Shown: positions 1 to 61,637 of the stretch, in pieces | Numbering within the stretch: the first letter of the stretch is position 1 | Layout of the letters: each line of letters begins with the position of its first letter | NCBI GenBank assembly: GCA_963829055.1 | Contig: CAWHHI010000004.1 | Span: 448,001 to 512,000, forward strand | Origin: an uncultured Gemmatimonadaceae bacterium | GTDB lineage: Bacteria > Gemmatimonadota > Gemmatimonadetes > Gemmatimonadales > Gemmatimonadaceae | DNA length: 64,000 bases | Direction: 5' to 3' | Program-made: the position numbers and the translations under genes | Notes under the pieces: model-generated | Databases searched by the model: none | Told to the model about the DNA's origin: nothing | What the model saw: only the letters and a program-made list of their open reading frames with translations

Positions 1-1512
1 GGTTGGCCGAGCCGCGCGACGAGCTGGGCGGTGCGCGGCGTCGCGTCAGGCGGCGCGTCGAGCGCGCGCATCGTGCTCACGACGACCTCGAACGGCGACT
101 TCACCTTGGCGCGGAATGCGGCCCGCGAGAAGAACTCGGGCGACGTGACGATCGTGCGCACGACCTCGCGAATGTCACCGTTCGTTCGCGTGAACGTCGC
201 CGCGGCGCGGTCGACGAGCGCCTGCGGCGGCGTGTCGCTCACGAAGCGAACCGCGAGCTTCCGCGCAATGAACTTCGCGGTGGACGGGATGCCGCGCGAG
301 GATGTCGAGCACTTCCTCGCCGTCCTCGATGCCGCGGCCCGCTTTCAGCTTGTGGCCGAGGACGACCTTTGCCTCGGCGTCGTGCACCTCGGGGCGGAAG
401 ACGAACTCGCCGGCGGCATCGGTGTCCTGCATGCGTTCGCGCGAATCCGACGGACACGCGGGTCCTGCGGCGAGCATCGAGCGAGCTGGCGAGGAGGGCG
501 GATGCTCCATCCGGTGAGCGCGCGTGCGACCTCGATGACGTCCTTCTGCGTGTACCCGCCATCGACGCCGAGCGTGTGCAGCTCCATGAGCTCGCGCGCG
601 TAATTCTCGTTGAGGCCACGGGGCCGGCGCGGCGCAGCCGGCACCGGGAACGGGAACCGGGAACCGACTTGCCAGCAGCTTGTTGTCCCCGACGACGGGT
701 TCCTCGCCCGGCTCTTCCCCGGTTCCCGGTTCCCGCTGCCCTGTTCCCGCCGCGCGGCGGACGCAGCGTGCTGCGTCCGCTGTCGGCGACACTCTGCGCA
801 TTGTCGAGATAGAACAGCATCGCCGGACTCTTCGCCACCGCGCCTAGCAGGTCGCGGAAGTGACCGAGCGCGTTAGGCCGGATGACGTCGCGGTCGTACG
901 ACGTCAGATACCAGCGCGTCTGACCCTTGCCGGCGAACACCGTGAAGTGATTCTCCCAGAAGTCGACCATGACTTCCTGGAGCTGGCGCTCGCTCATCAC
1001 CGCTCGCGCGACGCGGGACGACGTCAGCTCGGCCACGAACTGGTTCGAGCGCCGCGCCTGCTGCAGCAGCTGCAGCGAGTCGGCGAGCGTCGTCCGACCG
1101 GATCGCTGCATGGAGTCTCGGCGCGCGAGCGGCGCGAAGCAGCGCGGCGGGAGGGAACTGCTTGTAGATGCTCCGCGGAGCTCAGCGACAGCGTGCGATA
1201 GCGCGCGAGGAACTGAGTCCGTCGCGGAGTCGTCGATGCGCTCCGGATGAAGCTGCGCGTCGATCCACGGTCGACACCCATGGCTCTGCACGCGCGTCAG
1301 CATCGCCCGGACGCGCACCGAACGTCGAGTCGGCTCAGCGCCTGCGCCACCTGCTGCGCTGGCATCGAGCTCGCGCAGTACCGCTCGACGCGTGAGCCGA
1401 CACGGGGCGCGCGCGAGGCAGCCGCGCGGGAGGCGCAGCTCGCCGCGCCGTACACAGCGGCACGCACGTACGAACAGGCGAGCAGTGCGAGCGTGACGAG
1501 ACGTCTTCGCAT
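1..1512 (-). CDS. DUF1800 family protein (runs off window start; frameshifted)
   Basis: Motifs across frames: [87 protein letters not shown]; signal-like N-terminus [13 protein letters not shown]. Confidence 0.85.
646..748. repeat. Heptamer-type inverted repeat (GGGAACC units ... GGTTCCC units) inside DUF1800 gene
   Basis: gggaacgggaaccgggaacc at 646-665 and ggttcccggttccc at 721-734. Confidence 0.6.
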
Positions 1513-1677
1513 GAGAGCCGACGCGGTTGGATAGTCCTCGAGGTAGACGACTCGCTGGTGCAACGCTCGTTAAGCCGTCGCGGCCGTGCTCGGCCTTGGC
1601 CTTCTCCTTGCCCAACTCGACCATGCGCGCGCGAGATCGTCGCGCGCGCGTCGTCCGACTGCAGGAGCCCGCCACCG

Positions 1678-2956
1678 ATGATTTCCCCGATCGCCCGACC
1701 CGGTCACCGCACTCGCACGTTCGCTCGACGAGCAGCACGCGCGTGGTCGCTCCGGGCCCGTTCGCTGTGCCTCGCGTGCGTGCTCGCCGCCGCGTGTGAG
1801 GTCGTCGACAGCAAGTCGGCGCGACACGGAAGGCGGAGGCACGGAAGCAGGATACGACTACGGTTACCGGCCGCGGTTCCGGAAAGTGCGCGCGGAACCG
1901 TCGCGATCGACTCGGCGCCCGCGACGCCGGTGACGCCCGCTGACAGCGCTGAGGGCCGGCGTCGCGGACGACACCGGCGTCGTTCGCCTGTATCCGCCGT
2001 CGACCGCGACGCGGCGGCGTCGTGTTCGCGCTCGCCGAAGGCGTGGCCACGCCAACGCCCGCGGTGCACGTGGAAGAGCGCGCCGCTGCCGTGCTATCGC
2101 ACGAGCGATGGAACGTTGCGTCGACCATTCCGTTGCCGGCGGACGAAGACGCGGGGACGTTCACCCTAACGGTGGATCGCCCCGGCGGACGGATTGTGAG
2201 GCAGATCACAATCGCCGATCACGACTTCGGTCGTGAGCTCATCTTTCTCACGGACAGTCGTCTACAAGCGCGCGACGAGCACGCGCGAGATCGCGCGCGA
2301 CGCGAGAGCGGTCAGGGCATCGCTGTCGGTGGAGTCGCCGGACCGGCGGTGGACGCGGGCGGTGGCGCGAGCCGGTGCCGGGTATGAAGAGCACCGGGTA
2401 CGGCGTCGAGCGCTACTACTATCGTGCGACGGATTCCACGCGGTCCATCACCGCTGGACTACGCAGGCGAAGACGCGCGGCACGTTCGCGGGCGATACGA
2501 GCGATGCGCCGCTCACCGGCGCGCCGTCGTGGCGACATGCGGGCGTCGACCTCCCCGCGAAGCGCGGCGCGACCGTCATTGCGCCCGCGGCCGGGTCGTG
2601 GTCGCGATGTGGGCGAGTACGTGCTGTCAGGTCGCACGGTGCTCGTGGATCACGGCCAGGGCGTCGTGTCGGCCTACTTCCATCTCGACACGGCGACGGT
2701 CTCGAAGGGCGACATCGTGCGCGCCGGCGACCGCATTGGCCGCGTGGGATCGACCGGCCTCGCGACCGGGCCGCATTTGCACTTCGGCGTCTACCTCCAC
2801 GGGAAGGATGTCGACCCGGTCGCGTGGCGAGACATGCCGCTGGTCGTGGATGACTCGACAGACGTGAGAGACTCTGGCAGCTGGTGGCTCGGCGCTGATG
2901 GACCGTCAAAGGGGTCAGAGTCGCATCAAGCGACTCTGACCCCAGCTACCAGCTAG
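1678..2956 (+). CDS. M23 family metallopeptidase, probable lipoprotein (frameshifted)
   Basis: HAGVDL motif, GRTVLVDHGQGVVSAYFHL, GRVGSTGLATGPHLHFGV (HxH); lipobox-like LAAAC. Confidence 0.85.
2911..2943. repeat. REP-like hairpin GGGGTCAGAGTCGC-ATCAA-GCGACTCTGACCCC at convergent gene ends
   Basis: Perfect 14-bp stem with 5-nt loop read directly. Confidence 0.85.
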
Positions 2957-3672
2957 CGCCGCTCAGCTCGGTCCCGGTCTCGCGGAGCACGTAGCCGACG
3001 CCTCGCACGGTGTGCACGAGCGGCGATGCGCCGTCGGTCTCGAGCTTCTTTCGGAGGTAGTTGATGTAGACGTCGACGATGTTCGTCGTCGGGTCGAACG
3101 GCTGCTTCCACACCTGCTCCGAGATCTGCTCGCGCGTGACCGGAATGCCCGCGTGTCGCATGAGGTACTCGAGCAGCGCGTACTCCTTCTGCGTGAGCGC
3201 GAGCTTGCGGCCCGCGCGCGTGACCTCGCGCGAGATCGGATCGATCGACAGGTCGCCGACGCGCATCATCGTCTCGCCTGCGCGAATCGATGCGCGACGC
3301 AGCAGCGCCTTCACGCGAGCGAGCAGCTCATCGTAGTCGAACGGCTTCGCGAGGTAGTCGTCGGCGCCCGCGTCGAACCCCGTGACTTTGTCCGACACGG
3401 TGTCGCGCGCGGTGAGCATGAGCACGGGCGCGGTGAAGGCCCGATTTCTGAGCTCTCGGGCGACGTGAAGGCCGCTCCGCTTGGGCAGGCCAATGTCGAG
3501 AATGACGAGGTCTGGCCGATGGTCGAGGGCCATTTGCAGTCCGCTGTCGCCGTCATCGGCCGTCAGCACCGAGTACCCGTTGTCGGACAGTGTGCGCTGC
3601 GAGCACGTCGAGCACTTCGCGCCGGTCCTCGACGACGAGTACGGTCGCTGTTGGACGCTCGGTGGTTGCCAT
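2946..3672 (-). CDS. OmpR/PhoB-family response regulator (frameshift near N-terminus)
   Basis: VLVVED, PDLVILDIGLP, VLMLTARD, GADDYLAKPF, LTQKEYALLEYL, IVDVYINYLRKKL, TVRGVGY. Confidence 0.92.
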
Positions 3673-3828
3673 GCGGAGAACATTACGGTTAGCTGCAGCG
3701 CCAGCAAGGCGCGCTTTGGATAACCTCGAGCCACTCCTTGGTCTGATCGCGGACCGGTTCGCGCTGACGCGGTCCGCGACATCGCCCTTGAGCGGACTCG
3801 GCCGGGCCCGTTTCCTTTCGCGCGATGA

Positions 3829-4280
3829 GTGACTCGCGAATCGCGAGCTGGAATCCGAGTGGGGACCGTCGCCGCCGCCGCCACCATCGGCGCCGTGATC
3901 GGACTCGGGCTGCGACACGGCCTCGCGCTGCGGCCGTTCACGTCCGCGGGGCGCGCGCTGCTCGAGAAGCTCGGCGTGCGTCGGGAGCCCATCCGGCGAG
4001 CGCGCTCGTCGGGCTCGCGATCGTTGCGTGCGCGATCATCGTGTTGGGTGTGTGCTTCACAGTTGTCGCTGCGCCGCTACGGGGCTTCGGCTTCTCGTTG
4101 CCGCGATCGTGTTCGGCGCGATCGCGTGGAGCGTGTCCGCGTTCGTTGTGCCCTCCATTCTCGCGTGGAGCACGCGGCGCTGTGCTGGGCACCGCGCAAC
4201 GAGTGTTCATCTTCAGCATGCTCACGATCGCACTCGTGGTCGGTATGCGACTTGCCCGATCGAGCATCCAGATCGACTAG
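3829..4280 (+). CDS. Small hypothetical membrane protein (frameshifted)
   Basis: Several hydrophobic segments spread over two frames. Confidence 0.5.
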
Positions 4281-4452
4281 CATCGAGCTGGACGCACGGA
4301 ATCCAATTGGAACTCCGGAGCGTACACGCAGTATGTGTCGTCAGGCGCGCGCGCGGGGTCTGCCCTCAGTGCGGTGCGAGTCGAGGAACGATCGGCGCTC
4401 CGGACTCGACTTCGAGTCGAGCACCGCGGAGCTTCATTCACAGGGAGGGGTT

Positions 4453-4992
4453 ATGGACATCCTCGTGATGCTCGAGGACAACCCCGAACACTCGACAATG
4501 CTGGCCCACGTGAACTCGGTGCCGGCGCCGCTGAACTCGGAGCGGCCGCCGCGCGATGTGGTGACCCTCTACGGGGTGCCGAGTCCGGAGTCGCTGGCAT
4601 TGGCGCTCGCTGCCGCAGTGGAATCGCGGCGGTTGCCGGAAGAGCGTTCGGACACGATTCGCCACCTCGGCGTGTGGCCGGAGCGTGGCGCAGTCGGAGA
4701 TGCGGCCTGGCGGGATATGAGCACAGGCCAACTGCTGACCCGCGATCTCGAGATCCCGCTCGAGACGCTCGTCGACACGGCGCGGCAGCTGCTCGGCGAG
4801 TGCGGACAGACCATTCGCCGCCTGGTGGCCGGGCTCACAATGCCCGATTGGCCCGAAGGCGCTCGCCGCGCGATCAGCTTTTCGTTTTCCCCCATGGTCG
4901 CGGTCTCGCTGCCCGGGGCGATGCAGATCGACACGATGCTCGAGAGCTTCCGCGAAGCCGACGGGATCACCTTCGATAACGACGGAGACTGA
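4453..4992 (+). CDS. Hypothetical protein
   Basis: ATG after GGAGGGG RBS, protein-like composition, followed by terminator. Confidence 0.65.
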   Translation: MDILVMLEDNPEHSTMLAHVNSVPAPLNSERPPRDVVTLYGVPSPESLALALAAAVESRRLPEERSDTIRHLGVWPERGAVGDAAWRDMSTGQLLTRDLEIPLETLVDTARQLLGECGQTIRRLVAGLTMPDWPEGARRAISFSFSPMVAVSLPGAMQIDTMLESFREADGITFDNDGD

Positions 4993-5020
4993 GACAAGAA
5001 CCCTAATTGTCAGAGCAGTG

Positions 5021-5058
5021 AGAAGGCCGCCGAGCTGAGCTCTGGCGGCCTTTTTCTT
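5021..5058 (+). terminator. Rho-independent terminator
   Basis: AAGGCCGCC...GGCGGCCTTTTTCTT stem followed by T-run. Confidence 0.75.
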
Positions 5059-5188
5059 CGTCGACGGCTACCGGGCAGAAGCGCTGATGGCCGATAGCTG
5101 CCGGCCGATGGCTCACGGGTGCCGTAAGGCCCCTTGACGAACCCGCGACCGCGCGACAAATCCTCGAAAGTCTACGAACCCCAACTCC

Positions 5189-5448
5189 ATGCAAGAGCGC
5201 TCCACTCAGCAGTCACGCCGCCAGTCACCGGGCGGCGCTCGCGTCTTCGCGGATGATGCGGGCGATTGTGGAACGCGTCGCACGCCACTGGCACCGTCGA
5301 TGCGGCGGTCGTGTTCACGTGCATCAGCGACTCGCGGCAGACCGCACGCGCGATCGCCGTCCCCGTCGGCTTCGCCCTGACCGACACCGGCGACGAGTTG
5401 CTCCGCGCCTGGCTTCGCGAGGCACCGCGCATGGGCCTACTCACTTGA
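5189..5448 (+). CDS. Small hypothetical protein (frameshifted)
   Basis: MQERSTQ... joins AVVFTCISDSRQTARAIA...LLRAWLREAPRMGLLT. Confidence 0.45.
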
Positions 5449-5493
5449 GCTCCACCTGAGCTGGAATCACCCGAGCAGTCGAGGATACGAGCA

Positions 5494-7610
5494 ATGCGGG
5501 AGTATCGCAGCGCAGACATCCGGAACGTGGCCGTGGTCGGTCACGGAGCGAGCGGGAAGACCACACTGGTCGACGCGCTCGCGTTCGTTTCTGGCTCCAG
5601 CAAGCGCCACGGCTCGGTGAAGGATGGCACCGCGCTCACCGACCACACGGCGGAAGAGATCGACCGCGGGTTCTCGATCAACCTCGGGTGCGCGTTCGCC
5701 GAGTGGATGGACACGAAGATCAACCTGATCGACACGCCGGGGTACCTCGACTTCCAGGGTGACGCGCGTCGCCGGACTCGCCGCCGCGGACGGTGCACTC
5801 GTCGTCGTGAGCGCGACCGCCGGCGTCGAAGTCGGAACGGAGAAGATGTTCCGCGAGGCGGTGAGCCGCGCCGACCCGGTGCTGTTCGTCGTGTCGATGA
5901 TGGACAAGGAGAACGCGAACTTCGACGCGATCTACCAGCAGATCAAACAGCGCCTGACGTCGAAGGTGATCCCGGTCGAAGTGCCGATCGGCAACGGGCC
6001 GGAATTCCGCGGCATCATGAACCTGTTCGCGAAGTGCGCCTACATCTACAAGCCGGGCACGAAGTCGGGCGAGTACGACGAGGTCGACATCCCCGCCGAC
6101 GCGCAGGAGACGTACGATCGCTACCACCAGGAGCTGATCGAAGCCATCTCCGCGACCGACGACACGCTGCTCGAGCGCTATCTCGAGGGTGTCGAGATCG
6201 GGCGCGACGAGGCGATTCACGGGAATGAAGGAAGCGATGAAGCGCGGCGATCTCTTCCCGCTCTTCGTCGTGTCGTCGGAGAAGACGTACGGCATCTCGG
6301 CGCTGCTCACGGAGATCGTGCAGCTCATGCCGTCCGCGTACGAGATGGAGGAGATCCACGCGTTCAAGGGCGCCGAGGGCGACAAGACCGTCGAGATCCA
6401 TGCCGAGGACAACGGCCGTTCTCGGCCCACGTGTTCAAGACGACGTCCGAGCCGCACATCGGCGAGGTCTCGTACTTCCGCATCGTTCTCGGGCACCGTG
6501 TCGAACGGGCAGGAGGTGTACAACGCGACGCGCGACGGCGTCGAGAAGATGGGCCACCTCAGCGTCGCGCAGGGGAAGGACCGCATCGAGGTGCCGATCC
6601 TTCACCCGGGCGACATCGGCTGCGTGGCCAAGCTCCGCAACACGCACACGAACGACACGCTGTCCACGAGGGAGCATCCGGTCCGTCTGCCGCAGATCCA
6701 CTTCCCGGAGCCGATCGTGACGTTCGCGGTGCAGCGCGACGGCGCGGCACGACGAGGAGAAGCTGCAGCAGGGCATTCACCGGCTGCACGACGAGGACCC
6801 GACGTTCGAGACTCGTTATGTGCCGGAGACGCACGAGACGGTCATCAGCGGCATGGGCGAGCGTCACCTCGAAGTCGCGATGTCGAAGCTCAAGCGGAAA
6901 GGCGGGCGTGTCGGCGGAGCTGGCGCGTCCGCGCATTGCCTATCGCGAGACGATCACGGCGAAGGCCGAAGGGCAGGGCCGCCACAAGAAACAGTCGGGC
7001 GGCCGCGGACAGTTCGGCGACTGCTGGATTCGCATGCGGCCCGACGCCGCGCGGCAAGGGCTACGAGTTCATCGATGAGATCGTCGGCGGGTCGATCCCG
7101 AGCAAGTTCATTCCGGCGGTCGACAAGGGCATTCAGGAAGCGTCCGCGCGCGGCGTGCTCGCCGGCTATCCGATGGTCGACTTCGCGGTCGAGCTGTTCG
7201 ACGGCTCGTACCACTCGGTGGACTCGAACGAAATGTCGTTCAAGATGGCGGGCATTCAGGGCTTCAAGACCGTCGCGCCGAAGTGCCGGCCCGTGCTGCT
7301 CGAGCCGCTCGATGAGATCGAGATCTCGACGCCCGATCAGTATCTCGGCGACGTGATGGGCGACATCTCGAGCCGCCGCGGCAGCATCCTGGGCACCGAT
7401 TCACTCGGCGACGCACGTGGGACGCGCGTGCGTGCGGTCGTGCCGCAGGCGGAGCTGCACCTGTACGCGACGGACCTGCACTCGATGACGCACGGCCGCG
7501 GCACGTTCGCGCGGCGCTTCCACGGCTACGAGCAGATGCCGGGCGACGCCGCGCAGAAGGTGATCGAGGAATCGGCGAAGGTGAAAGAAGGCGAGCTCGC
7601 CGAGGTCTGA
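5494..7610 (+). CDS. fusA: Elongation factor G paralogue (EF-G2/FusA2-like; frameshifted)
   Basis: IRNVAVVGHGASGKTTL, INLIDTPGYLDF, GMGERHLEV, HKKQSGGRGQFG, DGSYHSVDSNEMSF, VLLEP, LHSMTHGRG. Confidence 0.92.
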
Positions 7611-7638
7611 CGAGCACAGACGACGGTGGTGGCGACGA

Positions 7639-9709
7639 TCAACGATCGGCAGCCATCACCGTCGCCGTTCCGCCCGACGGCGAACACTCGCGAGTCTATC
7701 TCGCCCGATAAGCCGAGCAGGATCTGCGTGGTGCGTGAGTCGAGCGCCGTCCACGTGCTGCCGTTGAAGCGGAACAGCACCCCGTCCTCGCCAGCGGCGT
7801 AGACGTCGGTGGGCCCCGTGCCCCACACCGCGCGCGAGTGCCTTCGTCGTCGGGTTGGGCAGCGCGTACCAGCGCACGCCGTCGTAGCGAAGCACGGTCC
7901 CACCTTCGCCGACGGCGAAGACATCGTTCGACCCAGCTGCCCCACACGGCGCGCAGCAGGAACGCCGTGCCGCTGGCCATGGACGTCCACCGCGAGCCGT
8001 CGAAGTGGATGATCGTGCCGGTGTCGCCAACGGCGTACACGTCGTTAGGCGCGCTGCCCCACACGCTGCGCAGGAACCGCGTCGTGGGGCTCGTCACGGA
8101 CGACACTGCCTCGCCGTTGGCGCGGAGGATCGTGCCTTCGGCACCGACGATGTAGCGTCAGGTCGCGATCGATCGTCCAGACTGACCGGAGCAGCAGCGG
8201 ATCGCGGGCTCGCGATCGACGACCAGCGCGACGCCGTCGTAGTGCAGCACGGTTCCTGTGTCACCGACGGCATAGACGTTCGTCGGCCCACTGCCGTTCA
8301 CGCCGTAGAGATCGTTCGCCGGAGGAACCGGGCTCCGGTTTCCAGTCCCGATGCGTCACGCCGCAGCACGAGACCGCCGAGGCCGACGGCGTACACCGCT
8401 TCCCGAGCCCGAGCCCAGACGGAGAAGAGCGTGGGCGCGGTAACGAGCGTGCTCCAGGTTCGGTGATGCCGCCACGCGCGACCGTGCCCGACCATCCGGC
8501 GACGAACGATCTGGCCACCAGCGCCCCACACCGCGCGGAGGTTCTGGCGCGATGGCGACGTTCGCGACCGTGGACCAGCGACGCGCCGTCGAAGTGGATG
8601 ATCTCGCCGGTGTTGCCGACGGCGTACACGTCGTTAGGCGCACTGCCCCAGATGCCGAACAGGTGCTTTCGTCGTCGGACTCACGACGTTCTGCCAGTTC
8701 GTTCCGTCGAAGTGAAGCACCATGCCCTCCACGCCGACGGCGTAGACATTGTTAGGCGTCGCGCCCCACACGCCGAACAGCGCGGTGGTCGTAGGGCTCG
8801 GCATCGCCGTCCACGCGGTTCCGTCGAAGCGAAGGATCGCGCCATTCTGGCCCACGGCCATGAGATTCGTCGGTGACCAGCCCCAGACGCCCCAGATCTC
8901 GGTATTGCCGTTGTTCGTCATCGGCGACCACTGCGTGCCGTCGAATCGGAGCATCGAGCCGCCGGCACCAACGGCGTAGACGTGGGTGGCGTCGAGCCCC
9001 CACACCTCGAGCAGCGTGTTCGGGCGTGCCGCTCGCCATCGCGGTCCACGCCGCGCCGTCGTAGTGCAGCATGAGACCGTTCGTGCCGACGGCGAACACG
9101 TTCGACTCGCTCGTGCCCCAGATTCCCGACGATGGTTTCGCGCGTGCCCGTCGCCATGGTGCTCCAGCCGCCACCCGTCCAGCGGAGGATGATGCCCTCC
9201 TGCCCGCCGGCGAATACGGACGTCGGACTCGCCGCCCACACCGCGAGCAGCGACACCTCGGTCAGTCCCTGCGTATCCAGCCCCCACGTCTTCACGGGTC
9301 GCTGGCCGGAGACGATCGTGACCGACGACGTCGATTTGAACGAGCCGACGCTGCCGGTGACCTGAGCGCTCCCGTTCGCGAGCGCGGTCAACACTCCGGC
9401 TGTGGACACGCTCGCCTTCGAGGGGTCCGAGACGGTCCACTTCGGCGTCATCTCGTCGGTGATGGTGCCGTCGGCTTTGCGGCCGAAGATCTGGAGCGGT
9501 GCGGTCGCTCCGACTTCGAGGTAGAGCGAGGCGGGGTGCACTTCGACGGCCGTAATGCCCGGGCCGACGCCTGCGGGCTCGTCGCCGTTGCAGGCCATTG
9601 CGCCGGTCAGAGCCGCGACGAGGAGGACGCCGAACGTGACGCGCGCGGCTGCCTGCAACTTCCGGCGGTGCGGCGACAGCGGCGACAGAGCTGGGGCCGG
9701 AAGCGTCAT
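7639..9709 (-). CDS. Lipoprotein with Ig-like domain and ~40-aa beta-propeller-type repeats (frameshifted)
   Basis: GAMAC lipobox; WTVSDPSKASVSTAGVLTALANGSAQV Ig-like segment; many L..VWG...NDVYAVG..G.ILHFDG..W repeats. Confidence 0.75.
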
Positions 9710-9903
9710 CGACGTCTGGCTCGACCGTGGTGCGTTGAATTCATCAATGCGGTAGTACAGGGAGACTCGGCGGCGGAGCCGAACGTCAAACCGCCGTGCT
9801 GGTACGGGAACGTATGTACCAGCACGGCGAAATACACCGCCTATCTCAAAGTAGCTCGCACCCGAGGCGAGCTCTACGAACGCACTGACCTATTGGACGC
9901 TCG

Positions 9904-10446: not shown

Positions 10447-10471
10447 GTAGGAGATGCCGGCCGCTCAGCTC

Positions 10472-16111: not shown

Positions 16112-16118
16112 TAAGACA

Positions 16119-51445: not shown

Positions 51446-51460
51446 GACGATGGTAGCGTG

Positions 51461-51490
51461 TGTCCGTGCCGGATATATCCGTTACGGACA
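51461..51490. promoter_or_regulatory. Candidate tandem PadR operator
   Basis: TGTCCG-tgc-CGGATA-TATCCG-tta-CGGACA just upstream of the padR start. Confidence 0.6.
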
Positions 51491-51741
51491 TAGTACGCCC
51501 GGAGTTTCTCCGTTGCCAGTGGCCCGTTTTCGGTGCAGCAGTCGGTGGGTTCGCGTTGCGCTTGTCCCTCACGGTACGCGTCGTGTCCCCACGAGACGCT
51601 GAGACAAGCACCGGCGTCTCTCGCGCGGCGTTTGTACGGGGGCTACTATAAGATCGTCTGCCATGCGTGAACCGCGTGTTGGGTGCACACGACGGTGTGT
51701 GCGTCCAGGCGTCCACGTCTCGACGCGCTGAGGAGGCCAAC

Positions 51742-52897
51742 GTGTTTACCAGGCGTTTCTCTGCCGCTCTGATCTTCGCCGCTTCACTCGCGGCGCTGCC
51801 GCACCACGCCTCGGCTCAGGATCGACTCCTGCCGGCGTGGTGTCCATCAGCGTCGCACGATTCCCTCGGTCGATCGATCTCCGGCGCCGAGCTCACGGTG
51901 GACGGCACAACGGTTCGCGGCGTGACCGATGAGCGCGGCGAGGTCCGCTTCAACGCCGTGCGTGGCGGACCCGCGACGGTGCACATCCGCCGTCTCGGGT
52001 TCCGGCCGACGACCCTGGATATCATCGTCGATCAGCGCGTGCCCGCCACGTGCATCGTGACGCTGACGTCGATTCCGCAGCGCGCTCGCGACAATCGTCG
52101 TGAAGGGCGGCACGAACTACACCGGCCGTATGGCGGGCTTCTATCAGCGACGGGATCTGGGCATTGGCCACTTCGTCTCGCGCGAGCGGCTCGAGCACGA
52201 CAATCCGTCGCAGCTCACCGACATCTTCCGCCGACTGCCGGGCGTGCAGATCACGTCCACGCGCTTCATCCGGAACGCGATCCGCTTCCGCGGGAATGGC
52301 GGCAGTCTGCTGGCCGCTCGTGTGGCTCGATGGCGCTCCGCTTCCGACGGCGGAGTTCGATCTCGACTTCCTCTCGCCTCAGTCGATCGAGGGCATCGAG
52401 GTCTACAGCGGCATCTCGCAGATCCCCCCGCAGTTCATGGGCGCTCGTGGTTTGGGCTCGTGTGGTGTGATCGTCGTGTGGTCGCGTGAGGGCGAGCGGC
52501 GGCAGAAGAAGTCGCAAGAAAGCCGTCACCGCCACGGAGCTCGCTGACATGGTCGCGTCGCTCAAGGTGTACACGCCGGACCAGGTCGACGTCCCGGCGC
52601 GAGGCGACAGCCTGTCGCGACCACAGCCGCTCTATCCCGAGACGCTGTTGTTCACCGGCGTGCCGGGCCAGGTGCTCGCCGAGTTCGTGGTGGACACGCT
52701 CGGCCACGTCGAGCTCGACACGTTCGGCGTCATCTCCTCGACGAACCCGAAGTTCACGCAGGCGGTGCAGCGCGCACTGCCCGACTGGGCGTACGCGCCG
52801 GCGATGCTTGGACGGCAAGCGCGTGCGGCAGCTCGTGCAGCAGCCGTTCACGTTCGTGGTCGACTCCGCGGTGCTGCGACGGGCGAACCGGCAGTAG
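51742..52897 (+). CDS. Carboxypeptidase-regulatory + plug-like + TonB C-terminal domain protein (frameshifted)
   Basis: TDERGEVRF..IRRLGF; LTDIFRRLPGV, PLVWLDG, IEGIEVY, CGVIVVWS; PLYPE...GQVLAEFVVDTLG...QLVQQPFTF. Confidence 0.72.
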
Positions 52898-52905
52898 CAG
52901 CCGCG

Positions 52906-53471
52906 TTAGGTGGTGGTCGGGCGCTCGGTGTGCGCCCGACCGCGACGCGACGTCGCGAAGCAATTCCGTGATCGTCGCCGAGATGGTGATCGTCGTGCTC
53001 GGCCACGAACAGCACGTGGTCGATCACGCGCATTGGCTGCTCGAGCCGAGGGTGCAGTGACGTGCGCACGACGAGGGCATTCGTCGTAGCGTTCGAGTCG
53101 CTCGCACGATCGCCTCGCGCTCGCGCCGGAACGCAGCCGAGCAGGTCGACGAGGCGTGCGACGCGTTGTGATTCGCGTCGTGCGTGCGCCGGTTCTCGAG
53201 GTCGGCTGCGCGCCAACCGTTCGGCACCGTGCTCGAAGTCATCGAGCCGCGCTGCCCACAGCGACTCGAGGTCGAGCAGATGGCCCGACGTTCTCCTGAA
53301 TCGACCACTCGCCGTCGACGCGCGTGGTCAGCACGGCTCGGCGTCGAGGTCACGAACGCGCTCCTCGAGTCGCGCCGGCGTACCGCGCAGGCGCTCGACA
53401 ATGTTCGGGAACGCCCACGGCTCGAGGTCGAACGCGAAGCGGCGCGAGAACCAGCGGGTGCGTTCGACCAT
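52906..53471 (-). CDS. DinB-family protein (frameshifted; end approximate)
   Basis: ERLRGTPARLE, WSIQENVGHL, LHPRLEQPMRVIDHVLFVAEHDDHHL. Confidence 0.72.
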
Positions 53472-53502
53472 GACGTTACCCGATGCCGAGGCGGAGTGCC
53501 CG

Positions 53503-54055
53503 CTACCAGCCCATGCGCTCGCGCAGCCGGGTCACGTGCGCGATGTGGTGCGGCCCATGCCACGCGTACAGCGCGAGCATCTGATCGAGGCGTCTGACGG
53601 CCCGTCTCCGGGTGAACGAGTGGCCGCTCGAAGTCGGACGGCATTCATCGCGCGCAGGATCGCGACCCATCGCTCGTGAACGGCGTCGAGCAGCGCCAGC
53701 GATGTCGCGATCGGAACGACCTTGCACGTCGACAAGCACCGCCCAGCGGCCTTCGTCGTACGGCTTGATCGTCGGCTCGTTCTCCGTCAGCGCGAGCTTG
53801 AAGCGGATGTACGCGTTCAGGTGACTGTCGGGCACGTGGTGCACGACCTGCCTTACGGTCCAGCCGCCTGGCCGATACTCGCGTGTCGATCTGCTCGTCG
53901 GTGAGCCCGCGGACGGCCTCGCGAAGGCGCGCCGGCGTGGCGGCAATGACGTCGATCGCTCGCGTGCGGGCGTCGGCATCGAGCGAGGCGGGGCGCTGAA
54001 ATCGGCCGGTGGGGAAACTGAGGTCTGCCGAGGAGTCCTGGACTGAAGCAGTCAT
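53503..54055 (-). CDS. yfiT: YfiT/BstA-family thiol transferase (frameshifted)
   Basis: YRPGGWTVRQVVHHVPDSHLNAYIRFKLALTENEPTIKPYDE, LYAWHGPHHIAHV. Confidence 0.88.
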
Positions 54056-54179
54056 CGTCGAGACGCTCCTGAGATGCGGAGAAGGGGAGGCTCGGAAGAT
54101 GAACGCATGGATCGTTCGTATCCAGTGCGTACGCTATGCGCGGCGCGCATGCCGGGTGTGCACATCAGCCGGAGCGAGT

Positions 54180-54258
54180 TGTCATCCCGATCGGCGTCGG
54201 TGTCATCCCGAGCGACCGCGAGGGATCTCCTGTGAGGACCGTGTAGCCAGTCTCGCGT
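54180..54258. repeat. TGTCATCCCGAG-family left arm (duplicated start)
   Basis: tgtcatcccgatcggcgtcgg-tgtcatcccgagcgaccgcgagggatctc. Confidence 0.8.
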
Positions 54259-54280
54259 CAGTTACGGTTGGGCGCGCAAT

Positions 54281-54542
54281 TCCAACAGCGACGCAGAATA
54301 CGCAGGCGGCCGCTCGGCGGCCGCAACGCAAAAGGACGCAGAAAACGTCAACACCTCTGCGGGCAGGCTCCCTCTCGCCGGGCCGTGAAGAAACGGGGGA
54401 ACGTCCTCGGGCGGACCGGTGCGTCCCGAGGCGGTTCCCCTTCTCCAAGGCTTGGCGCACCGCCGGCGTCCCGAGCGGCCGTTTTCTGCGGCCTTCTGCG
54501 TTGCGCGCGAAGCGCGCCTGCGTATTCTGCGTCGCTGTTGGA
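54281..54542. mobile_element. MITE-like element with perfect 28-bp terminal inverted repeats
   Basis: TCCAACAGCGACGCAGAATACGCAGGCG (54281-54308) and exact reverse complement (54515-54542); second imperfect IR pair inside; no convincing ORF. Confidence 0.6.
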
Positions 54543-54589
54543 CCGCGAGATCCAGCTGTATTGCACGAAGCGCGATGGAGAGATCCTGA

Positions 54590-55282
54590 TCAGCTGAAGA
54601 ACTCCACGAGCGACGCGGCAATGCGGTCGATCGACGCTTTCTCGAACGCGTGCGGCGTTCGCGGGTGCACCTCGAGCTCGCCATTCGCGAGCTGGCGAAC
54701 CGCTGCGATGCACTCGTCGAGCGTCACCGTCGCATCGCGGTCGCCGACACCGATACGCACCGGCTGCGTGACCGAAGCGAGAAGCTCGGGAGTGATGAGT
54801 GGACGCGTCCCGAGCTCGCGCAATAGCTCCACCGTGTGCGCGAGCAGCGTTTCCCAGCCAGCCGCCGTGTGACGCGCCTCCAGCGCGGCCGCGAACTTCG
54901 GGACCTTCGCGCGGATCGTCGCCGCATCGAGCATTGCCGTTTCCCGCGCGGCGACCTCGGGCGTCCACGCGAGCTTCGTCGCGAGCGTCGCTACACGCGC
55001 GATACGATCGGGCGCGGTCGCGGCCAGGAAGAGCGCGACGTAGCCGCCCATGCTGTAGCCGAAGAAGTCCGCGCGGGAGATGCCGCGCCGGTCCATCTCG
55101 TCCACGACTGTCGCAGCGAACGATTCGATCCGGAGCGGGCGACCGCGCAGTGGCGTCGTCCCATGTCCCTCGAGCTCGAGCACCGTGACGCGTCGCGCTC
55201 CGCTCAGTCGGGCGGCGAGCGGGGCGAGCTGCGTGGCGTCACCGAGCGCGCCATGCAACAGGATCAGGTCCGTGTCTGCCAT
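54590..55282 (-). CDS. Alpha/beta hydrolase
   Basis: LLHGALG, GHG, FGYSMGG, VGDRD, TPHAFE. Confidence 0.88.
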   Translation of the reverse strand: MADTDLILLHGALGDATQLAPLAARLSGARRVTVLELEGHGTTPLRGRPLRIESFAATVVDEMDRRGISRADFFGYSMGGYVALFLAATAPDRIARVATLATKLAWTPEVAARETAMLDAATIRAKVPKFAAALEARHTAAGWETLLAHTVELLRELGTRPLITPELLASVTQPVRIGVGDRDATVTLDECIAAVRQLANGELEVHPRTPHAFEKASIDRIAASLVEFFS

Positions 55283-55412
55283 GACGGCGTGTCGAATGTG
55301 GAGTGCGGGTGCCTAACGACGATCGGCCGACGGCTGCGGCCGTGCCGGTTCGTGGCAGCGTGTCTGTTCGCCTGCTGGTGTGCGCGCCGGCGTCCGTGGC
55401 GCGCAACGTCGG

Positions 55413-56021
55413 TCAGCGGCCGACGGACCCGCGCCGGCTCGCCGACGCGGACTGGCGCGGCATCGCCGTGTTCTTGTAGCGCGACGGTAGCACCGCGATG
55501 TGGAAATGCGGTGGGCGCCGCTCCTCGGTCGCCTCGATGACGCCACGATTCTCCGCCGTGAGCAGCGTGCGACGGAGCCACGTCAGGCAGCGCCCCGATG
55601 GCTTGCGCAGATCGATCGCGATCCCAGCCGGATGCACCGTCAACGACGAGCTGTTCACAAGCTTCCGCGACATGGGCCGCGTCGCGCTCGTGACGACCAT
55701 CGGCTCGCGGCACGCGCGCTTGTAGTCAGCCGCGAGCTGGATCACGAACGACCGCGTTTCCGGCCGAACGTATGGCGTCCGCACGTTTGCCACGGTGTAG
55801 TTCGCGTTGCCGTTGAGCCGTACCAGCTCTCCGCGGACGACCGCCCGCTTGAGCTGCGTATTCGTCTCGTAGAAGTCGAGCCCACCGCGGACCGCGCGTC
55901 GATACATGAGACTCACGCTGGCGTGAGACCCACGGAGCGATTGGGCGGATAGCGGCGCGACCGCGGTGACGAGCGACGCGGAAGCGAGCGCGATGATGGC
56001 GAGGCGAGACGAAGACTTCAC
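55413..56021 (-). CDS. DUF5715-like secreted protein (M15/MepA-type fold)
   Basis: Signal peptide; VTSATRP, SLTVHPAGIAIDLR, ATEERRPPHFHIAV. Confidence 0.72.
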   Translation of the reverse strand: MKSSSRLAIIALASASLVTAVAPLSAQSLRGSHASVSLMYRRAVRGGLDFYETNTQLKRAVVRGELVRLNGNANYTVANVRTPYVRPETRSFVIQLAADYKRACREPMVVTSATRPMSRKLVNSSSLTVHPAGIAIDLRKPSGRCLTWLRRTLLTAENRGVIEATEERRPPHFHIAVLPSRYKNTAMPRQSASASRRGSVGR

Positions 56022-56156
56022 GGCAGAGACGACGGTGAAACGTGGAGAACGTGAAGAAACGCAGCAAGGGGAATGAACCGGGGCCGCGCGAGCGATGCTT
56101 GCGGCCCCTGTGAAAGGACGACGAAGCGCGCCTTGGCGTCAGCGCGCCAGGAGCGA

Positions 56157-56622
56157 TCAGCGGTGAGCGTAGACTTTCGTCTTGCCCGCCTTGTCGAACG
56201 CAGACGACGTCGTATTTCTCGGCCGTGCCGCCCTCCATTCCTGGTGACCCCTGCACCATTCCGGGCACCGCGAGCCCGATGACGTCCTTGGGCGCCTGGG
56301 TGACGAGCTTGTCGACGAGGTCCGCCGGCACGTGGCCCTCGATGATGTAGCCGCCCGTCACGATGGCCGTGTGACATGACGCGAGCGCATCGGGTACGGC
56401 GTACTTCTTCTTGATCGGCGCGACGTCGTCGAGGTCGTGAACCGTGACGGTGTAGCCGCTCTTCTGCATGTGGTCCACCCACTTTTTGCAGCACCCGCAC
56501 GAAGGGCGTCTTGTAGACGGTGGCTTTTTCGCTGGCACGAGCGCGAACAGCCGCGTCGCGCTCGTCGTGCCGAGTGCGAGTCCACCAGCGGTGATACGAA
56601 GCCAATCGCGGCGGGAGATCAT
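56157..56622 (-). CDS. DUF411 metal-binding protein with Tat-like signal (frameshifted)
   Basis: SRRDWLR; PSCGCCKKWVDHM, SCHTA, IEGHVPA, GLAVPGM..GSPGME. Confidence 0.85.
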
Positions 56623-56687
56623 CGGTCCTCCGAAGATGTATTAGAATGCCTGAACCGGCAACGCGTACGCGTCGGCCGGGTTGCGGT

Positions 56688-57377
56688 TCAGGGACATGCA
56701 CAATAAACGGGGTGGCCCCGCGGAGCTACCCGGCTGGTACCGATCTCGTTGCCGTCAAAGGTCCGCGACGAGCTGCGGCGAGTGACTCGCGTCGGTCGAG
56801 CTCGGCCGAGGTGACGATTCTGGAGAAAGTACACATGGCCGGCGAACAGTGAACCGACGGCGATCGCGCGCCACTCCGAATTCCGGGATGTACTGCGACG
56901 CGCACTGACGAAACCGGACGCACCGCCTCGCTCCGTTCCCGTGGCAGAGGACCGGCTCGAACAGGAACTCGTCACCGCCCCGTCGAAACAGAATCCACGC
57001 GTGCCGACTGTTCTCGGACTGCCGGCGGCACTCGGCGCCCGATCACGAGATCGGCGTCGATTCCGATCTCGATCAGCTTGCGCCACGCCCATAGCGCGAA
57101 GTCCTCGCAGTCGCCGCGCCGCAACTGCTCGAACGTGTGTGGGTGCTGCCAGTAGTCCGACTCGCGGAAGAGGCTCGCGTCGCTCTCGTAGCTGACAGTC
57201 TGCCAGCCATGCGAGGATGTCGTCGAACGTCGACACCGCGCACTCGGTCTGGCCCTCGAAGACCCAATCGAAGCCGTGCCGTGCGCCGTCACCGAACGCC
57301 GCCAGCGGCGCCTCGTATGGGAGGCGCATCCACGGATCACGCACAGGGAAGAGACGCAGCCGCAGCTGGTGCAGCAA
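56688..57377 (-). CDS. Transglutaminase-like cysteine peptidase domain protein (frameshifted; end approximate)
   Basis: DYWQHP..FEQLRRGDCEDFALWAWRKL, HAWI. Confidence 0.65.
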   Translation of the reverse strand: MLHQLRLRLFPVRDPWMRLPYEAPLAAFGDGARHGFDWVFEGQTECAVSTFDDILAWLADCQLRERREPLPRVGLLAAPTHVRAVAARRLRGLRAMGVAQADRDRNRRRSRDRAPSAAGSPRTVGTRGFCFDGAVTSSCSSRSSATGTERGGASGFVSARRSTSRNSEWRAIAVGSLFAGHVYFLQNRHLGRARPTRVTRRSSSRTFDGNEIGTSRVAPRGHPVYCACP

Positions 57378-57419
57378 CGCGGCGGAACGGCGCGAACAGC
57401 GCGGCCGCGCCCCGCAGAC

Positions 57420-57683
57420 TCACCTCGCGCCGGCGCCAGCCGCGATGGACTCGGACCGGCGCAACTGTTCGCGGAGATCCCACACGGTGGAGTCGCGCGA
57501 GTCCTTCGGCGCGAACGTGTACCGCTTCTGTTCGCCGCTGTCGCTGACGAACAAGCGGTAGTGAACGGTGGTCCCGGTCGCGGCGGTCTCGGTGAGGTCC
57601 TTGTGCTTCCATCGCTCGCCGGACTCGGTGTGGAACGCAACCCACCCCTCGGCCAGCGGCTCGAGCTTGTCTCGCTTGTTCAT
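57420..57683 (-). CDS. Hypothetical protein
   Basis: 87-aa ORF with GGAGG RBS. Confidence 0.6.
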   Translation of the reverse strand: MNKRDKLEPLAEGWVAFHTESGERWKHKDLTETAATGTTVHYRLFVSDSGEQKRYTFAPKDSRDSTVWDLREQLRRSESIAAGAGAR

Positions 57684-57805
57684 GTCGGTGCCTCCAAGCG
57701 TGACGGACGTGACAGCAGCGTCGCCGTCGTCTGAGGATAACGACGGCTCCGGCGCGTGTCGAGCGCGGCGGCTCGGGCTCGGGACCTACGGCTGCGCGGG
57801 TCGCC

Positions 57806-58693
57806 TCACAGTGCGAGCGCACTCGGTACGGGCGGATCTACCGAGTGGTCGTAGAAGCCGCGCCCAGCTTTGCGGCCCAGATGCCCCGCGCGCACGAGCC
57901 GACGGAGCAGCGGCGGCGGGGCGAACCGTTGTTCGCGGTATTCGTCGAACATCACCTCGGCGACGCGCTCCACCGTATCCAGGCCGACGAAGTCGAGCAG
58001 CGTGAACGGGCCCATCGGGTGGCCCGCGCCCAGTTGCATACCAGCGTCGATGTCCGTGATCGTCCCGACGCCGTTCTCGAGCGCCCGGATGGCGTCGAGC
58101 ATGTAGGGTATGAGCAGTCGGTTGACGACGAAGCCGGAACTGTCGCGCGCAACGACCGGCTGTTTCCCTAGTTGGCCGCACGAGCGTCATTGCGCGATCG
58201 AACGTCGCGTCGCTCGTCGTGATGTGTGCGAACGACTTCGACGAGCCGCATGAGCGGCACGGGATTGAAGAAGTGCAGCCCGACGAGACGATCCGGCCGG
58301 CCGCTCGCGGTCGCCATCGCCGCGATCGTCAGGCTGGACGTGTTCGACGCGAAGATCGTGTCGGCGGCGCAGTGTGCGTGCAGCTCGCGCCACAGCGCAT
58401 TCTTGACGTCGAGGTCTTCGACGACCGCCTCGATGACGACGTCGCAGGCGGCCAGGTCATCGAGGCGGGTCGTCGTCGTTAGGCGCGACAGGGCGGCGTC
58501 GCGAGCGTCTGCGGTGAGCTTGCCCTTCTCGATGCTCTTGTCCAGCGACCGTGTGATGTTCGCACGGCGCGCGTGCAGCAATGGCTCGGTCAGCTCACGA
58601 AGCGTGGTCGTCGAGGCCGGCCTGCGCTGCCACCTGCGCGATGCCGCTCCCCATGAGCCCCCCGCCGACCACGCCGACCCTGGCGATCGACAT
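57806..58693 (-). CDS. hbd: 3-hydroxybutyryl-CoA dehydrogenase (frameshifted)
   Basis: GVVGGGLMGSGIAQ, VIEAVVED, FASNTSSL, GLHFFNPVP, GFVVNRLL, HPMGPFTLLDFVGLD, LGRKAGRGFY. Confidence 0.9.
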
Positions 58694-58725
58694 GCGCTCG
58701 GCGTTCGGACCGATCGCCGGTGTCG

Positions 58726-59567
58726 TCACCGATTGATGACCGACGACAGCACGTCGAACAGCGACTTGTTGCGAGGAGGCTCGCCGTGCTCCAGGCGATC
58801 GAGCGCCTGTTCGAGCGCGAGCTGCGCACGCTCCACGTTCGAGCGATACGACTTCGCGACGGCGGCGAATCCCGCGCCACCTATCGCGGCCCAGACGCCG
58901 CCGATCACCAGGGCGATCGGCATCGACGATCCAGGCATCATCGCCGCCACGGTGACGAGCCCGCCGCCGCCGACCAGGCCTGCACTCGCGATCGCGCCGC
59001 CGCCGATCACACTGCGGTGTCGCGTCTCGCCGAACGATGCGTCGAGGCGGACGAGCACGCGCGCGTCGTCGACGGGGACCACCGTCGCGCCAACCTCATC
59101 CGCGCGCGCGAGCGCGTAGCTTCGGCCTCCGACGCCGAATCCGCGCTTGATGCTGCCGACGAATGTCGCGACTCGCCTCCCAGGTGACACGCTCGGTGAA
59201 CCGACGGCGGACGCGAAGCGACTCATCGCTCTGCATGTAGCGGTCGATACGAGCGAGCACGTCAGCCTGCGAACCGGTGATCACGCGCTGCGCCCACGCC
59301 GACGTCGGGCCGAATACGCCGGATGACACGCCCTGCGGGCTCGGTCACGGCGACACGCGTCGCTTCCTCGGCGATGGCCTGCCTAACGTGTTCCGGCGAG
59401 AGCCCGACTTCCTTGCCCAGCTCGACGAGCTGGTCCTCGGTCATCGATTCTGTGGCGTCGCCGACTCCCGCCTGCAACTCGCTGGCGCGCGCGAGCACAC
59501 GCTCGAGCGCGGCGCGGTCGAGCGAGCGGCCCGGAGGAGGAGTTGGTTTGTCAGGCAAGTCAGTCAT
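58726..59567 (-). CDS. Hypothetical membrane protein (frameshifted)
   Basis: ALERVLARASELQ...LVELGKEVGLSPEHVRQAIAE; two C-terminal TM helices. Confidence 0.6.
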
Positions 59568-59718: not shown

Positions 59719-60845
59719 TCAGATTCCACCCATCACGACCTCGATCTGACGCTGGATGCCATCACGTATCGCATCCGGCAGGGGGAATGCCGCGGCGAGC
59801 GCCGCCATCGCGTCGCCGCTCGTGAACGGCACGCGCGCCGATCGCAGGTAGTAGCGCGCGTAGCCATCAGCGAGCTCCGGTGCCGCGCGCTGGAGCATGA
59901 GTCGCGCCACCGCGAACCAGCGCGTTGCTCGCGTAGCGGTCTACCGTGCCGTTTCGCTTGTCCGCGGGACTCGTGTTGTCGTCGATCGCGATCGTCGTCA
60001 CCGAGCTCACGATCTCGTGCACGAACGTGTACAGCGCCTCGCGCGCGTTCGCGGGCGTGTCAGGAAAGTTCACCGTCACGAGACGCGTGCGCTGCCCCAC
60101 GTCGAGCGTCCGCCCTTCGCCGTCGAGCGGTAGCGAGAGCAGGATCGAGCCGCGGTCCGCTCCGGAATTGTTCAGGAACCGCGCGAAGCGCTGGCGGTAC
60201 GTCGTGCGCCACAGCGAGTCGACCACAGCTCGCGCGGCCGAGCGGCGGAGTCTGCTCCTGCGCGCCAGTAGCTCGAGAAGAACTTGACGCGCTCGTCCTC
60301 CACCGCCTGAACGAACAGCCGCAACCACTCGCGATCGGCCGGCGTCGGAAAGTAGCCCGAGAACAGTTGAATGATCTGCTGCGAGTGCAGGTCGCCGGCG
60401 TTGCGGTCGTCGCCGTTGTTCCGCAGGAACAGCTCCGCGCTCTGCCGCGTCTCTTCCCAGGTCCCGAAGTACAGCGGGACGAACTGCGCCGACACGAGAT
60501 TCGGGAACGCGACGAAGCGCGCCGACGAGCTTTCGCGGTTCGACGTCGATCATCGACAGGACGTTCGCGCGCTTACGCGCCGCGACCACGGAATCGCGAT
60601 ACCCGCGGCGGAAGAACGGGACGCGCGTCGAATCGCCCTGGAGCATCGCGAACGCGTGCAGCCAGAGGTCGACGTGCTCGCGCGTGTCGACGATCCATGG
60701 CCCGGCGGCCGGCTGCTGCGCCGGAGCCGGCGCTGGCGGCGGCGCCGGTGTTGCGCCGCCGCCAACAGTGCATGCAGCCCGCGACGGCGACCAGCGCCGC
60801 GGCCAGGCACACAGTGACGCCGGCGATGCGAAGTCGCGGGCGCAC
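59719..60845 (-). CDS. Hypothetical lipoprotein (frameshifted)
   Basis: VAGC lipobox; continuous protein-like segments across frames. Confidence 0.55.
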
Positions 60846-60847
60846 GC

Positions 60848-61637
60848 TTACCTCAACCCGCTGCCCGGCCGCATGTCGTGCAGAACTTCCAGCCGACATC
60901 GAGCTCGGTGCCACACGCCGGGCAGTTCAGGCACCGTGAGGTTCTGACCGCAGTGCGGGCAGATAGGTGATGTTCCGTCCCTCGGGCAGCTCGCCACCGC
61001 AGTAGCGGCAGTCGCCCGACGCGACGATCGAACGCTGTCCGGTGGCGGACGAGCGTCGGTTGCGGGGCGGTGATCGGCGGCGGCGCAGCCGAGCGAGGGG
61101 CAGCGACGCCGGCGCCAGCCATCGCGCGCTCCGGAACGCCTAACGTTGGTCGATCCGCCATCGTAGCCTGCGGCGACCCGACCTGCGGTGCTCGGCCGCC
61201 TGCGGTGCGCCCGTCTGCGGTGGAGCAGCAGCGGCGGGAGCGGGTGCCGAGCTCGGAATCGCGGCGGTGCCTCCGCTGCCGGGACGCCGCAATACGGGCG
61301 AATCGACCGGTCGCGCACCCTCAGGAGCGAGCGACACCATCGTCGTCGCGTACGCCCGGAACTTCGTGAGGTCGGGGTTCGGCGCTTCGATCTCCGAGCG
61401 GAGGTCAGCCTGCATCTGAGGGTCGCCGATCAGATAGCCGCGCTCACCGGACAGGAGACGCAGCAGCGCGTGCTCGTAGTCCTGGTTCGTGTCGAGCTCC
61501 AGCTCGCGCCGGTTATGCCGGTACGGGATGAGCGTCGTGTAGAGCTCGGCAATCTCGAACGGGCGGCCCATCAGATCGGGAAAGCCCGTGCGAATGTTCT
61601 GCACGAGCCGTCGGTACATGCGGTCGAGTTCGTCCAT
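60848..61637 (-). CDS. Protein with C-terminal double zinc ribbon (frameshifted)
   Basis: CRYCG, CPHCGQ, CPACGTELDVGWKFCTTCG. Confidence 0.75.

Follow-up and report, generated by a model that had tools for sequence, protein, structure and literature searches.

Why should a short, asymmetric word be written over and over through the genes of a bacterium, in both orientations and in several reading frames? The question is raised by a 64,000-nucleotide stretch of DNA (the window) from an uncultured member of the Gemmatimonadaceae, in which the heptamer GTTAGGC, mostly extended to CGTTAGGC, recurs as dispersed copies. The window corresponds to C4:448001-512000 of a source genome (labelled G000) of 7.78 Mb on 20 contigs, whose XerD protein has its closest named relatives in the Gemmatimonadaceae. 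Genome-wide iterated motifs known from bacteria are few, namely DNA uptake sequences (DUS), uptake signal sequences (USS), the highly iterated palindrome HIP1, Chi and the FtsK-orienting polar sequences (KOPS), and each of them has revealed a mechanism of DNA handling. Our findings show that the word acts at the level of DNA and that its copies exclude one another on a scale of ~190 bp whatever their orientation. By analogy with known systems, (C)GTTAGGC may well be a self-tag of the DNA-uptake type, read on double-stranded DNA, of which one site per few hundred bases suffices; to this reading we give about even weight.

A preliminary description of the window had listed 30 exact copies of GTTAGGC, and all of them lie where it placed them, 19 on the plus and 11 on the minus strand, with 25 of the 30 extending to CGTTAGGC (it had said about 25). 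Five near variants that it named are likewise borne out, and one more, GGTTAGGT, lies near 63929. The enrichment that it claimed stands, whereas its arithmetic does not: GC content measures 67.2% rather than ~69%, and in place of the expected ~7 heptamers and 2-3 octamers an order-2 Markov model predicts 1.06 and 0.53, against 30 and 25 observed. GTTAGGC and CGTTAGGC rank first among all heptamers and octamers of the window, and again genome-wide, where they number 5,630 and 5,004 and each contig has 57-93 of them per 100 kb.

Is this abundance a by-product of codon usage? Coding DNA, as called by our own gene caller (9,264 segments, 79% coding, in an assembly with many single-base indels), holds 3,647 copies in G000, as against 92-102 in three synonymous-codon shuffles, so that the excess over a codon-preserving null is large. 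Four reading frames are occupied, by 1,468, 1,018, 693 and 468 coding copies. No less than 72% of TTA codons (2,122 of 2,955) stand inside GTTAGG, the motif contains 331 of the 5,805 called stops, and near stop codons the density of sites rises four- to five-fold, in either orientation. Tripeptides that the motif can encode outnumber their reversed order (ALG, ratio 1.57; PN[VADEG], 1.61). In its carriers the motif shapes the choice of codons and stops as well as the sequence of proteins. Site density is similar in coding and non-coding DNA (0.90 and 1.07 per kb), and strand balance per 50-kb bin is unremarkable (chi2 129.8 on 130 df). Among 15,493 coding positions at which synonymous choice permits a site, 23.5% are filled; fill is lower in genes with low GC at third codon positions (0.14 vs 0.31), and the rRNA stretch on contig C16 has zero sites.

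The preliminary description had proposed synonymous-site conservation in orthologues as a check. In a 55-kb region around xerD, five congeners retain unchanged 24 of 36 aligned G000 sites, despite a four-fold-site identity of 0.47-0.49, a level that is found between genera too and amounts to saturation. At positions permissive in both, the congeners fill 24 of 35 that are filled in G000 and 7 of 70 that are not, a comparison drawn from this one region and from congeners that are not mutually independent. With four high-motif genomes of other genera there is no shared placement (3/10 vs 10/39). Small as the region is, the contrast is large, and it indicates that sites are held long-term and were placed separately in different lineages. 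Taken with the shuffle excess, the four frames and the stops in both orientations, retention at saturated synonymous divergence supports the selection or mutational drive at DNA level that had been put forward.

How do the sites stand to one another? We analysed spacing up to 3 kb. Perfect sites of G000 form only 69 pairs at 100 bp or less, compared with ~325 per 100 bp at the plateau, and the deficit is equal in all four orientation pairs. The pair correlation is fitted by 1-0.89*exp(-d/193 bp), with no hard core and no peak, and a search for helical (10.5-bp) phasing in site spacing found none. The same ramp appears in the fill of permissive positions, which rises with distance to another site from 3.4% (<50 bp) through 15% (150-200 bp) to 37% (600-1000 bp), in every frame. 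Exclusion also tells us which variants behave as sites. Near a perfect site TGTTAGGC is repelled (28 observed vs 82.5 expected), as are CGTTAGGT (59 vs 145), CGTTAGGG (33 vs 74) and CGTTATGC (47 vs 106); CGTCAGGC (323 vs 313), CGTTCGGC (323 vs 307) and a reversed control (67 vs 63) are not. This shared behaviour defines a working site of about YGTTAKGH, with CGTTAGGC as its best form, and the broad set comprises 7,684 sites in 7.78 Mb, or one per 1,013 bp. A deficit of gaps of 300 bp or less recurs on the plasmids of Gemmatirosa (7 vs 17.9) and in lineages g54 (11 vs 20.4) and g9 (40 vs 50.7).

Three properties of the reader follow from these observations. Since exclusion is blind to orientation, the site is read on double-stranded DNA, and Chi-like and single-strand signals can be set aside. 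Since a second site is almost worthless close by and regains full value beyond ~500 bp, the reader acts once per stretch, in the manner of a search-limited capture. Finally, native gaps of 6-11.6 kb in G000 imply that a site is helpful, not required. A cost of rare codons fails to explain the exclusion, as the ramp is present also in the CCT-AAC frame and between opposite orientations. A promoter element was rejected, there being no partner word at a fixed offset within 70 bp, bar one 18-copy repeat, as was spread by mobile elements of the repetitive extragenic palindromic (REP) or miniature inverted-repeat transposable element (MITE) kind, given that a 12-nt flank in common occurs upstream in 88 and downstream in 78 of 5,002 copies (<2%).

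A basecalling artefact, the concern voiced in the preliminary description, can be dismissed as well: foreign segments of the same assembly are site-free, and both short-read metagenome-assembled genomes and the plasmids of a finished isolate carry the motif. The site-free segments, C6:5-55 kb (5440-55037) and C11:7-44 kb (7376-44054) of G000, serve as same-platform controls. They hold foreign-looking genes, many of those on C6 being duplicates, 40-65% identical, of core genes of G000; the segments are therefore probably chimeric contig starts. Named short-read genomes have up to 17 copies per 20 kb, and on the plasmids of Gemmatirosa kalamazoonensis KBS708 (three 50-kb stretches, 150 kb) 101 of 114 TTAG tetramers belong to GTTAGGC.

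The survey across the phylum that the preliminary description suggested reveals a patchy distribution. Among 251 genomes of the family (tallied by hand), 68 reach at least 100 copies per Mb, in 21 of 64 genera; about nine have 30-100 and the rest <30. Relatives range from <10 to ~1,300 copies per Mb, and even members of one genus can differ, as in g54, where five are high and four low. All six congeners of G000 that were tested have 2,500-5,100 copies. In sister family f3 the motif is raised in three of eight genomes, and in sister family f2 (97 genomes) only in genus g102 (181-1,061 copies). The 62 genomes from outside the order have at most 70 copies each and show no enrichment. Carriers are scattered on a XerD tree (a quick version, used for this purpose only). 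Carriers also speak dialects: in g54 CGTTGGGC is tolerated as well, g9 is less strict at either end, and Gemmatirosa insists on the final C. Several low genomes have many of their small number of copies in same-strand arrays ~600 bp apart, like integron cassette arrays. The low-motif genomes G013, G042, G063, G086, G260, G279, G344, G371 and G440, which are flagged as unpublished, entered tallies and control sets only and support none of the positive claims, and shares in the sequencing-run list were 0.26 or less.

Within the window, 21 of the 30 copies lie in called coding segments, in line with the earlier view that most are coding, and are read as Pro-Asn (9), Leu(TTA)-Gly (7), Leu(CTA)-Thr (4) and Val-Arg (1). 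Its features are the following, the stop codons being read from the sequence.

871..61145, 19 plus and 11 minus: dispersed (C)GTTAGGC copies, the window's share of the genome-wide 5,630.
872, 8044, 8751, 23330, 28005, 33088, 35346, 38370 and 40852 (range 872..40858): copies read as CCT-AAC (Pro-Asn); the frame at 40852 is uncertain owing to an assembly frameshift.
35981, 36497, 41243, 44582, 45343, 49835 and 50677 (range 35981..50683): copies read as TTA-GGC (Leu-Gly).
24947, 38986, 47960 and 58478: copies read as CTA-ACG (Leu-Thr).
59381: copy read as GTT-AGG (Val-Arg), a single case; with the Leu-Thr copies it spans the range 24947..59387.
8632..8639, minus: copy whose TAA closes the minus-strand open reading frame (ORF) that ends at 8634.
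43235..43242, plus: GCC-TAA-CG copy; its TAA ends the plus-strand ORF at 43240.
61138..61145, minus: CGT-TAG-GC copy; its TAG ends the minus-strand ORF at 61140.
46769..46782, both strands: back-to-back inverted pair of heptamers, directly downstream of the gene ending at 46725.
2164..52911: variant sites CGTTAGGG (2164, 10374, both on the minus strand) and CGTTAGGT (25827, 31819, 52904).
11740..23328: site-free stretch of 11.6 kb with normal GC, the third-largest gap of the genome.

The inverted pair is an exception, close pairs being rare across the genome. The site-free stretch is perhaps a recent acquisition; it encodes a KamA-like radical SAM protein, a D-Ala-D-Ala ligase-like protein, an FAD oxidase, a PP2C phosphatase and a Ras/Roc-type small GTPase. 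An Rfam search of the window gave no match, so that structured RNA is not supported. Contigs from several independent runs place single-base indels at 33982, 39342, 40038 and 42860, and the many broken ORFs of the window are thus largely assembly errors; these contigs (4 runs, 4 studies) cover the compared stretch piecewise, and the 40 differences listed of ~1,750 do not bear on the motif positions.

What might read the site? We envision that the apparatus of natural transformation (type IV pilus, ComEA, ComEC, DprA) includes a sequence-specific receptor which recognises YGTTAKGH on double-stranded DNA. Site-bearing DNA would be taken up and recombined more often, and site-bearing alleles would spread and be kept wherever protein coding tolerates them. 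One site would serve a few hundred bases, set by a sliding range or by short fragments; a second site nearby would add almost nothing and hence would not be gained. We infer both a reader that is part of the uptake machinery and a sequence bias in uptake. The hardware is in place: the type IV pilus locus of G000 is full, a ComEA-like gene stands next to its pilB, and ComEC and DprA are encoded too. Such genes are all but universal in the order, ComEC being found in 40 of 41 genomes, PilM in 45 of 46 and DprA in 5 of 5.

The likeness to the DUS of Neisseriaceae and the USS of Pasteurellaceae covers several traits. These too are short non-palindromic words at about one per kb, in both orientations and more evenly spread than random, which occupy tolerated reading frames and shift tripeptides; they come in lineage dialects, and their hosts have a type IV pilus and Com genes. 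They are, moreover, scarce in rRNA and atypical genes, a trait to which the lower fill of low-GC3 genes and the site-free rRNA stretch of C16 may point here. In Neisseria the cognate receptor is a ComP-type minor pilin. Their published density is 0.80-0.89 per kb, even and in both orientations (PMC2817400), and in Haemophilus influenzae uptake is not increased when two USS stand within 100 bp of each other (PMC7811141). Differences exist: our motif has 7-8 bp and theirs 9-12, it uses rare codons (72% of all TTA), its coding and non-coding densities are similar and it is patchy within the family and even within genera. It also lacks the inverted terminator pairs that are typical of DUS and USS (PMC2397512, PMC2817400, PMC7811141), and does not favour core contigs (compare PMC2397512). 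On this comparison the motif appears to work like a DUS; we do not file it as one, because one typical feature, the inverted terminator pairs, failed.

Several observations weigh against an uptake signal. Competence genes are equally present in genomes without the motif, and no gene or residue of the pil locus segregates with it (12 high vs 9 low loci). A standalone pilin does not segregate either, a secreted multi-helix-hairpin-helix protein occurs in 9 of 27 high and 6 of 25 low genomes, and no sequence-specific receptor was found among the candidates at the pil loci and these two further proteins. Inverted pairs within 30 bp number two among 5,004 copies, with no terminator pairs. Core contigs are not richer in sites, fill being near-uniform over all contigs (0.19-0.32), and tripeptides are not shifted for PLG (0.85) and weakly for [CRSG]LT (1.06). 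Exclusion is non-significant in g67 (18 vs 23.5) and absent in g53 (5 vs 5.4), the samples being small in both cases. Against the 0.6-1.7 kb given for neisserial conversion fragments in PMC2397512, a scale of ~190 bp is short. Finally, we found no report of natural transformation for the phylum Gemmatimonadota.

Other candidate readers were examined as well. The presence of ComEC, PilM, DprA or MutS does not follow the motif, pilin counts do not track it, and nor do the other genes in the XerD, ComEC and methyltransferase loci, which make up a small share of each genome. The secreted protein with tandem helix-hairpin-helix repeats is patchy in its own right (15 of 52 genomes), unrelated to the motif. 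A PilX-like protein has no solved relative by sequence. Prophages or phage-like elements were sought for a test of mimicry and none was obtained; a portal gene was present in none of the five genomes tested.

HIP1 (GCGATCGC) offers a second precedent, being an octamer at ~1 per kb in genes and between them, conserved beyond neutral expectation and lost patchily, as described in PMC13756078, PMC5861425 and PMC4390886. Our motif shares these traits, and differs in that HIP1 is a palindrome tied to two methyltransferases whereas GTTAGGC is asymmetric, is missing from the methylome of a carrier and has no co-occurring methyltransferase. In Gemmatirosa kalamazoonensis the methylated motifs are RGATCY, ATGCAC and CCAGN7TCA (PMC3974934). 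Although its plasmids carry 101 copies in 150 kb, GTTAGGC is not among these three motifs detected by real-time sequencing of single molecules (SMRT), which argues against a HIP1-like methylation site. Weak signals from 5-methylcytosine (5mC) or phosphorothioate may go unnoticed in a standard SMRT report. One of six high-motif genomes tested (0/1 and 1/5) gave a 5mC methyltransferase, and neither the 5mC nor the N6/N4 methyltransferase families track the motif, so that the co-occurring methyltransferase for which the preliminary description had suggested looking did not emerge. We consider a role as a methylation site unlikely. Chi and KOPS, which are likewise over-represented non-palindromic octamers, have a strong polarity with the direction of replication; here polarity is weak (Spearman 0.18 with GC skew, p 0.045; 367 leading and 298 lagging copies, or 55:45, in hand-summed bins of C16), and sites in opposite orientation are redundant, not complementary. 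Of the analogies drawn at the outset, that with Chi/KOPS fails, that with a methylation site is unlikely, HIP1 differs, uptake fits best, and a nucleoid-protein site stays among the alternatives weighed below. The remark that no such motif had been described for this lineage agrees with our literature searches, which found none, one of them covering the best 20 of 709 matches, and left most subscription papers uncovered.

Could the reader instead reside in the cytoplasm? For a chromosome protein, whether it organises the nucleoid or is a loader with a sliding or spreading range of ~200 bp, selection would keep about one loading site per kb, and neighbours within that range would be redundant. 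Such a protein predicts the same orientation-free exclusion and the same conservation; it sits well with near-uniform fill on all contigs and has no need of terminator pairs, and a nucleoid role has been argued for HIP1 (PMC5861425). We hold it possible, though on the unlikely side: the ramp is exponential, with no hard core, footprint-length peak or 10.5-bp phasing; native DNA tolerates gaps of 6-11.6 kb and most genomes of the family do without sites; and we found no candidate protein. XerD residues do not track the motif, and the dif-like site does not resemble it. Alternatively, the site might bias mismatch or heteroduplex repair over ~200 bp toward the site-bearing strand, a ratchet that would create and keep sites until most DNA lies within reach, as in the methyl-directed model of HIP1. 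That model predicts saturation near one site per kb (PMC4390886), which is seen here, MutS is present in five of five genomes tested, and repair tracts could yield an exponential scale. A strand mark is needed, however, yet the Gemmatirosa methylome lists only its three motifs, and of six high-motif genomes one gave a 5mC methyltransferase. Nor are one-off precursors specifically drained: the low counts of several such words reflect a generic avoidance of TTAG, words without one or both core G being equally rare (observed over expected, O/E, 0.16 and 0.13). We regard this ratchet as improbable.

The letters themselves point to integrons, whose core sites in attC and attI have the consensus GTTRRRY. 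Attachment-site-like hairpins at C20:119-206 kb of G000 and in low-motif relatives have the very same words at their start and end, including the variants GTTAGGT and GTTATGC, so that the motif is identical to the attC ends of these Gemmatimonadales. An integron integrase or a derivative of it might therefore use the dispersed copies as secondary recombination or binding sites, and the IntI-like gene of G000 (C20:208008-208985), with its catalytic Lys and first His replaced, would be a candidate. This is very unlikely in our view. True attC-like sites are a few on C20, the inverse core-hairpin-core layout is absent from the bulk of copies, and the dispersed copies are single, intragenic and free of hairpins or partner sites. 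Their abundance does not follow IntI: of 41 genomes, 24 have a match above the family cut-off, among them the low-motif G007, G008, G009, G011, G012 and G016, and a search in high-motif G004 and G120 gave only Xer-level matches. Other attC cores are not enriched in G000 (GTTAGAC, O/E 0.23; GTTAGCC, 0.26). A divergent IntI-like gene occurs at C73:356-1192 of G001, and in G001 and G019 the divergent copy adjoins an intact intI. A defence system that attacks DNA without a nearby, possibly modified, site would make use of even spacing and both orientations, and a conserved Eco57I-like adenine methyltransferase of ~1,070 aa (C8:73551-78306 in G000), followed by a SNF2-like helicase gene, might be its enzyme. 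Of 75 Gemmatimonadales genomes 70 have the gene, irrespective of how often the motif occurs, with residue differences explained by kinship; together with the Gemmatirosa methylome and the native many-kb gaps this leaves a self-mark hardly credible.

Uptake and the integron resemblance might also be combined. A receptor tuned to the integron core, evolved in part of the Gemmatimonadales, would preferentially capture from environmental DNA the integron cassettes, which bear the motif at their attC ends, and chromosomes would be filled with the motif as a by-product; we regard this idea as doubtful.

Other repeats of the genome came to light on the way. A MITE-like intergenic element of ~250 bp with inverted ends of CAGGAT/ATCCTG units occurs at 18 places in G000 (for example C20:363154, C11:145356 and C3:334091); the copies were retrieved by a motif-anchored search and each holds one internal CGTTAGGC. 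The tandem heptamers ACTGGGG and ATTCCCG recur in window and genome (100 and 178 doubled units) and recall the cyanobacterial short tandemly repeated repetitive sequences, and a REP-like word, TGTCATTCCGAGCG, has 456 copies. A dif-like site at C16:560791 coincides with the switch in GC skew, and the 16S rRNA gene (C16:610131-611677) lies ~50 kb from this apparent terminus.

What does the motif mean for the Gemmatimonadaceae? It affects about a quarter of the sampled genomes of an abundant soil family, and its density can be used there as a check on binning. Given the contrasts among relatives, even within genera, comparative genomics can put the gain and loss of such motifs to the test. The motif is present in a cultured type strain, and the spacing law is a quantitative prediction for uptake or binding. 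We know of no genetic system for the phylum Gemmatimonadota, and an uptake signal, if this is what the motif is, may open the phylum to genetic manipulation. Were uptake in addition tuned to the integron core, this would make a third uptake-sequence system of independent origin, and outside Proteobacteria the first, linking natural transformation with the harvesting of cassettes.

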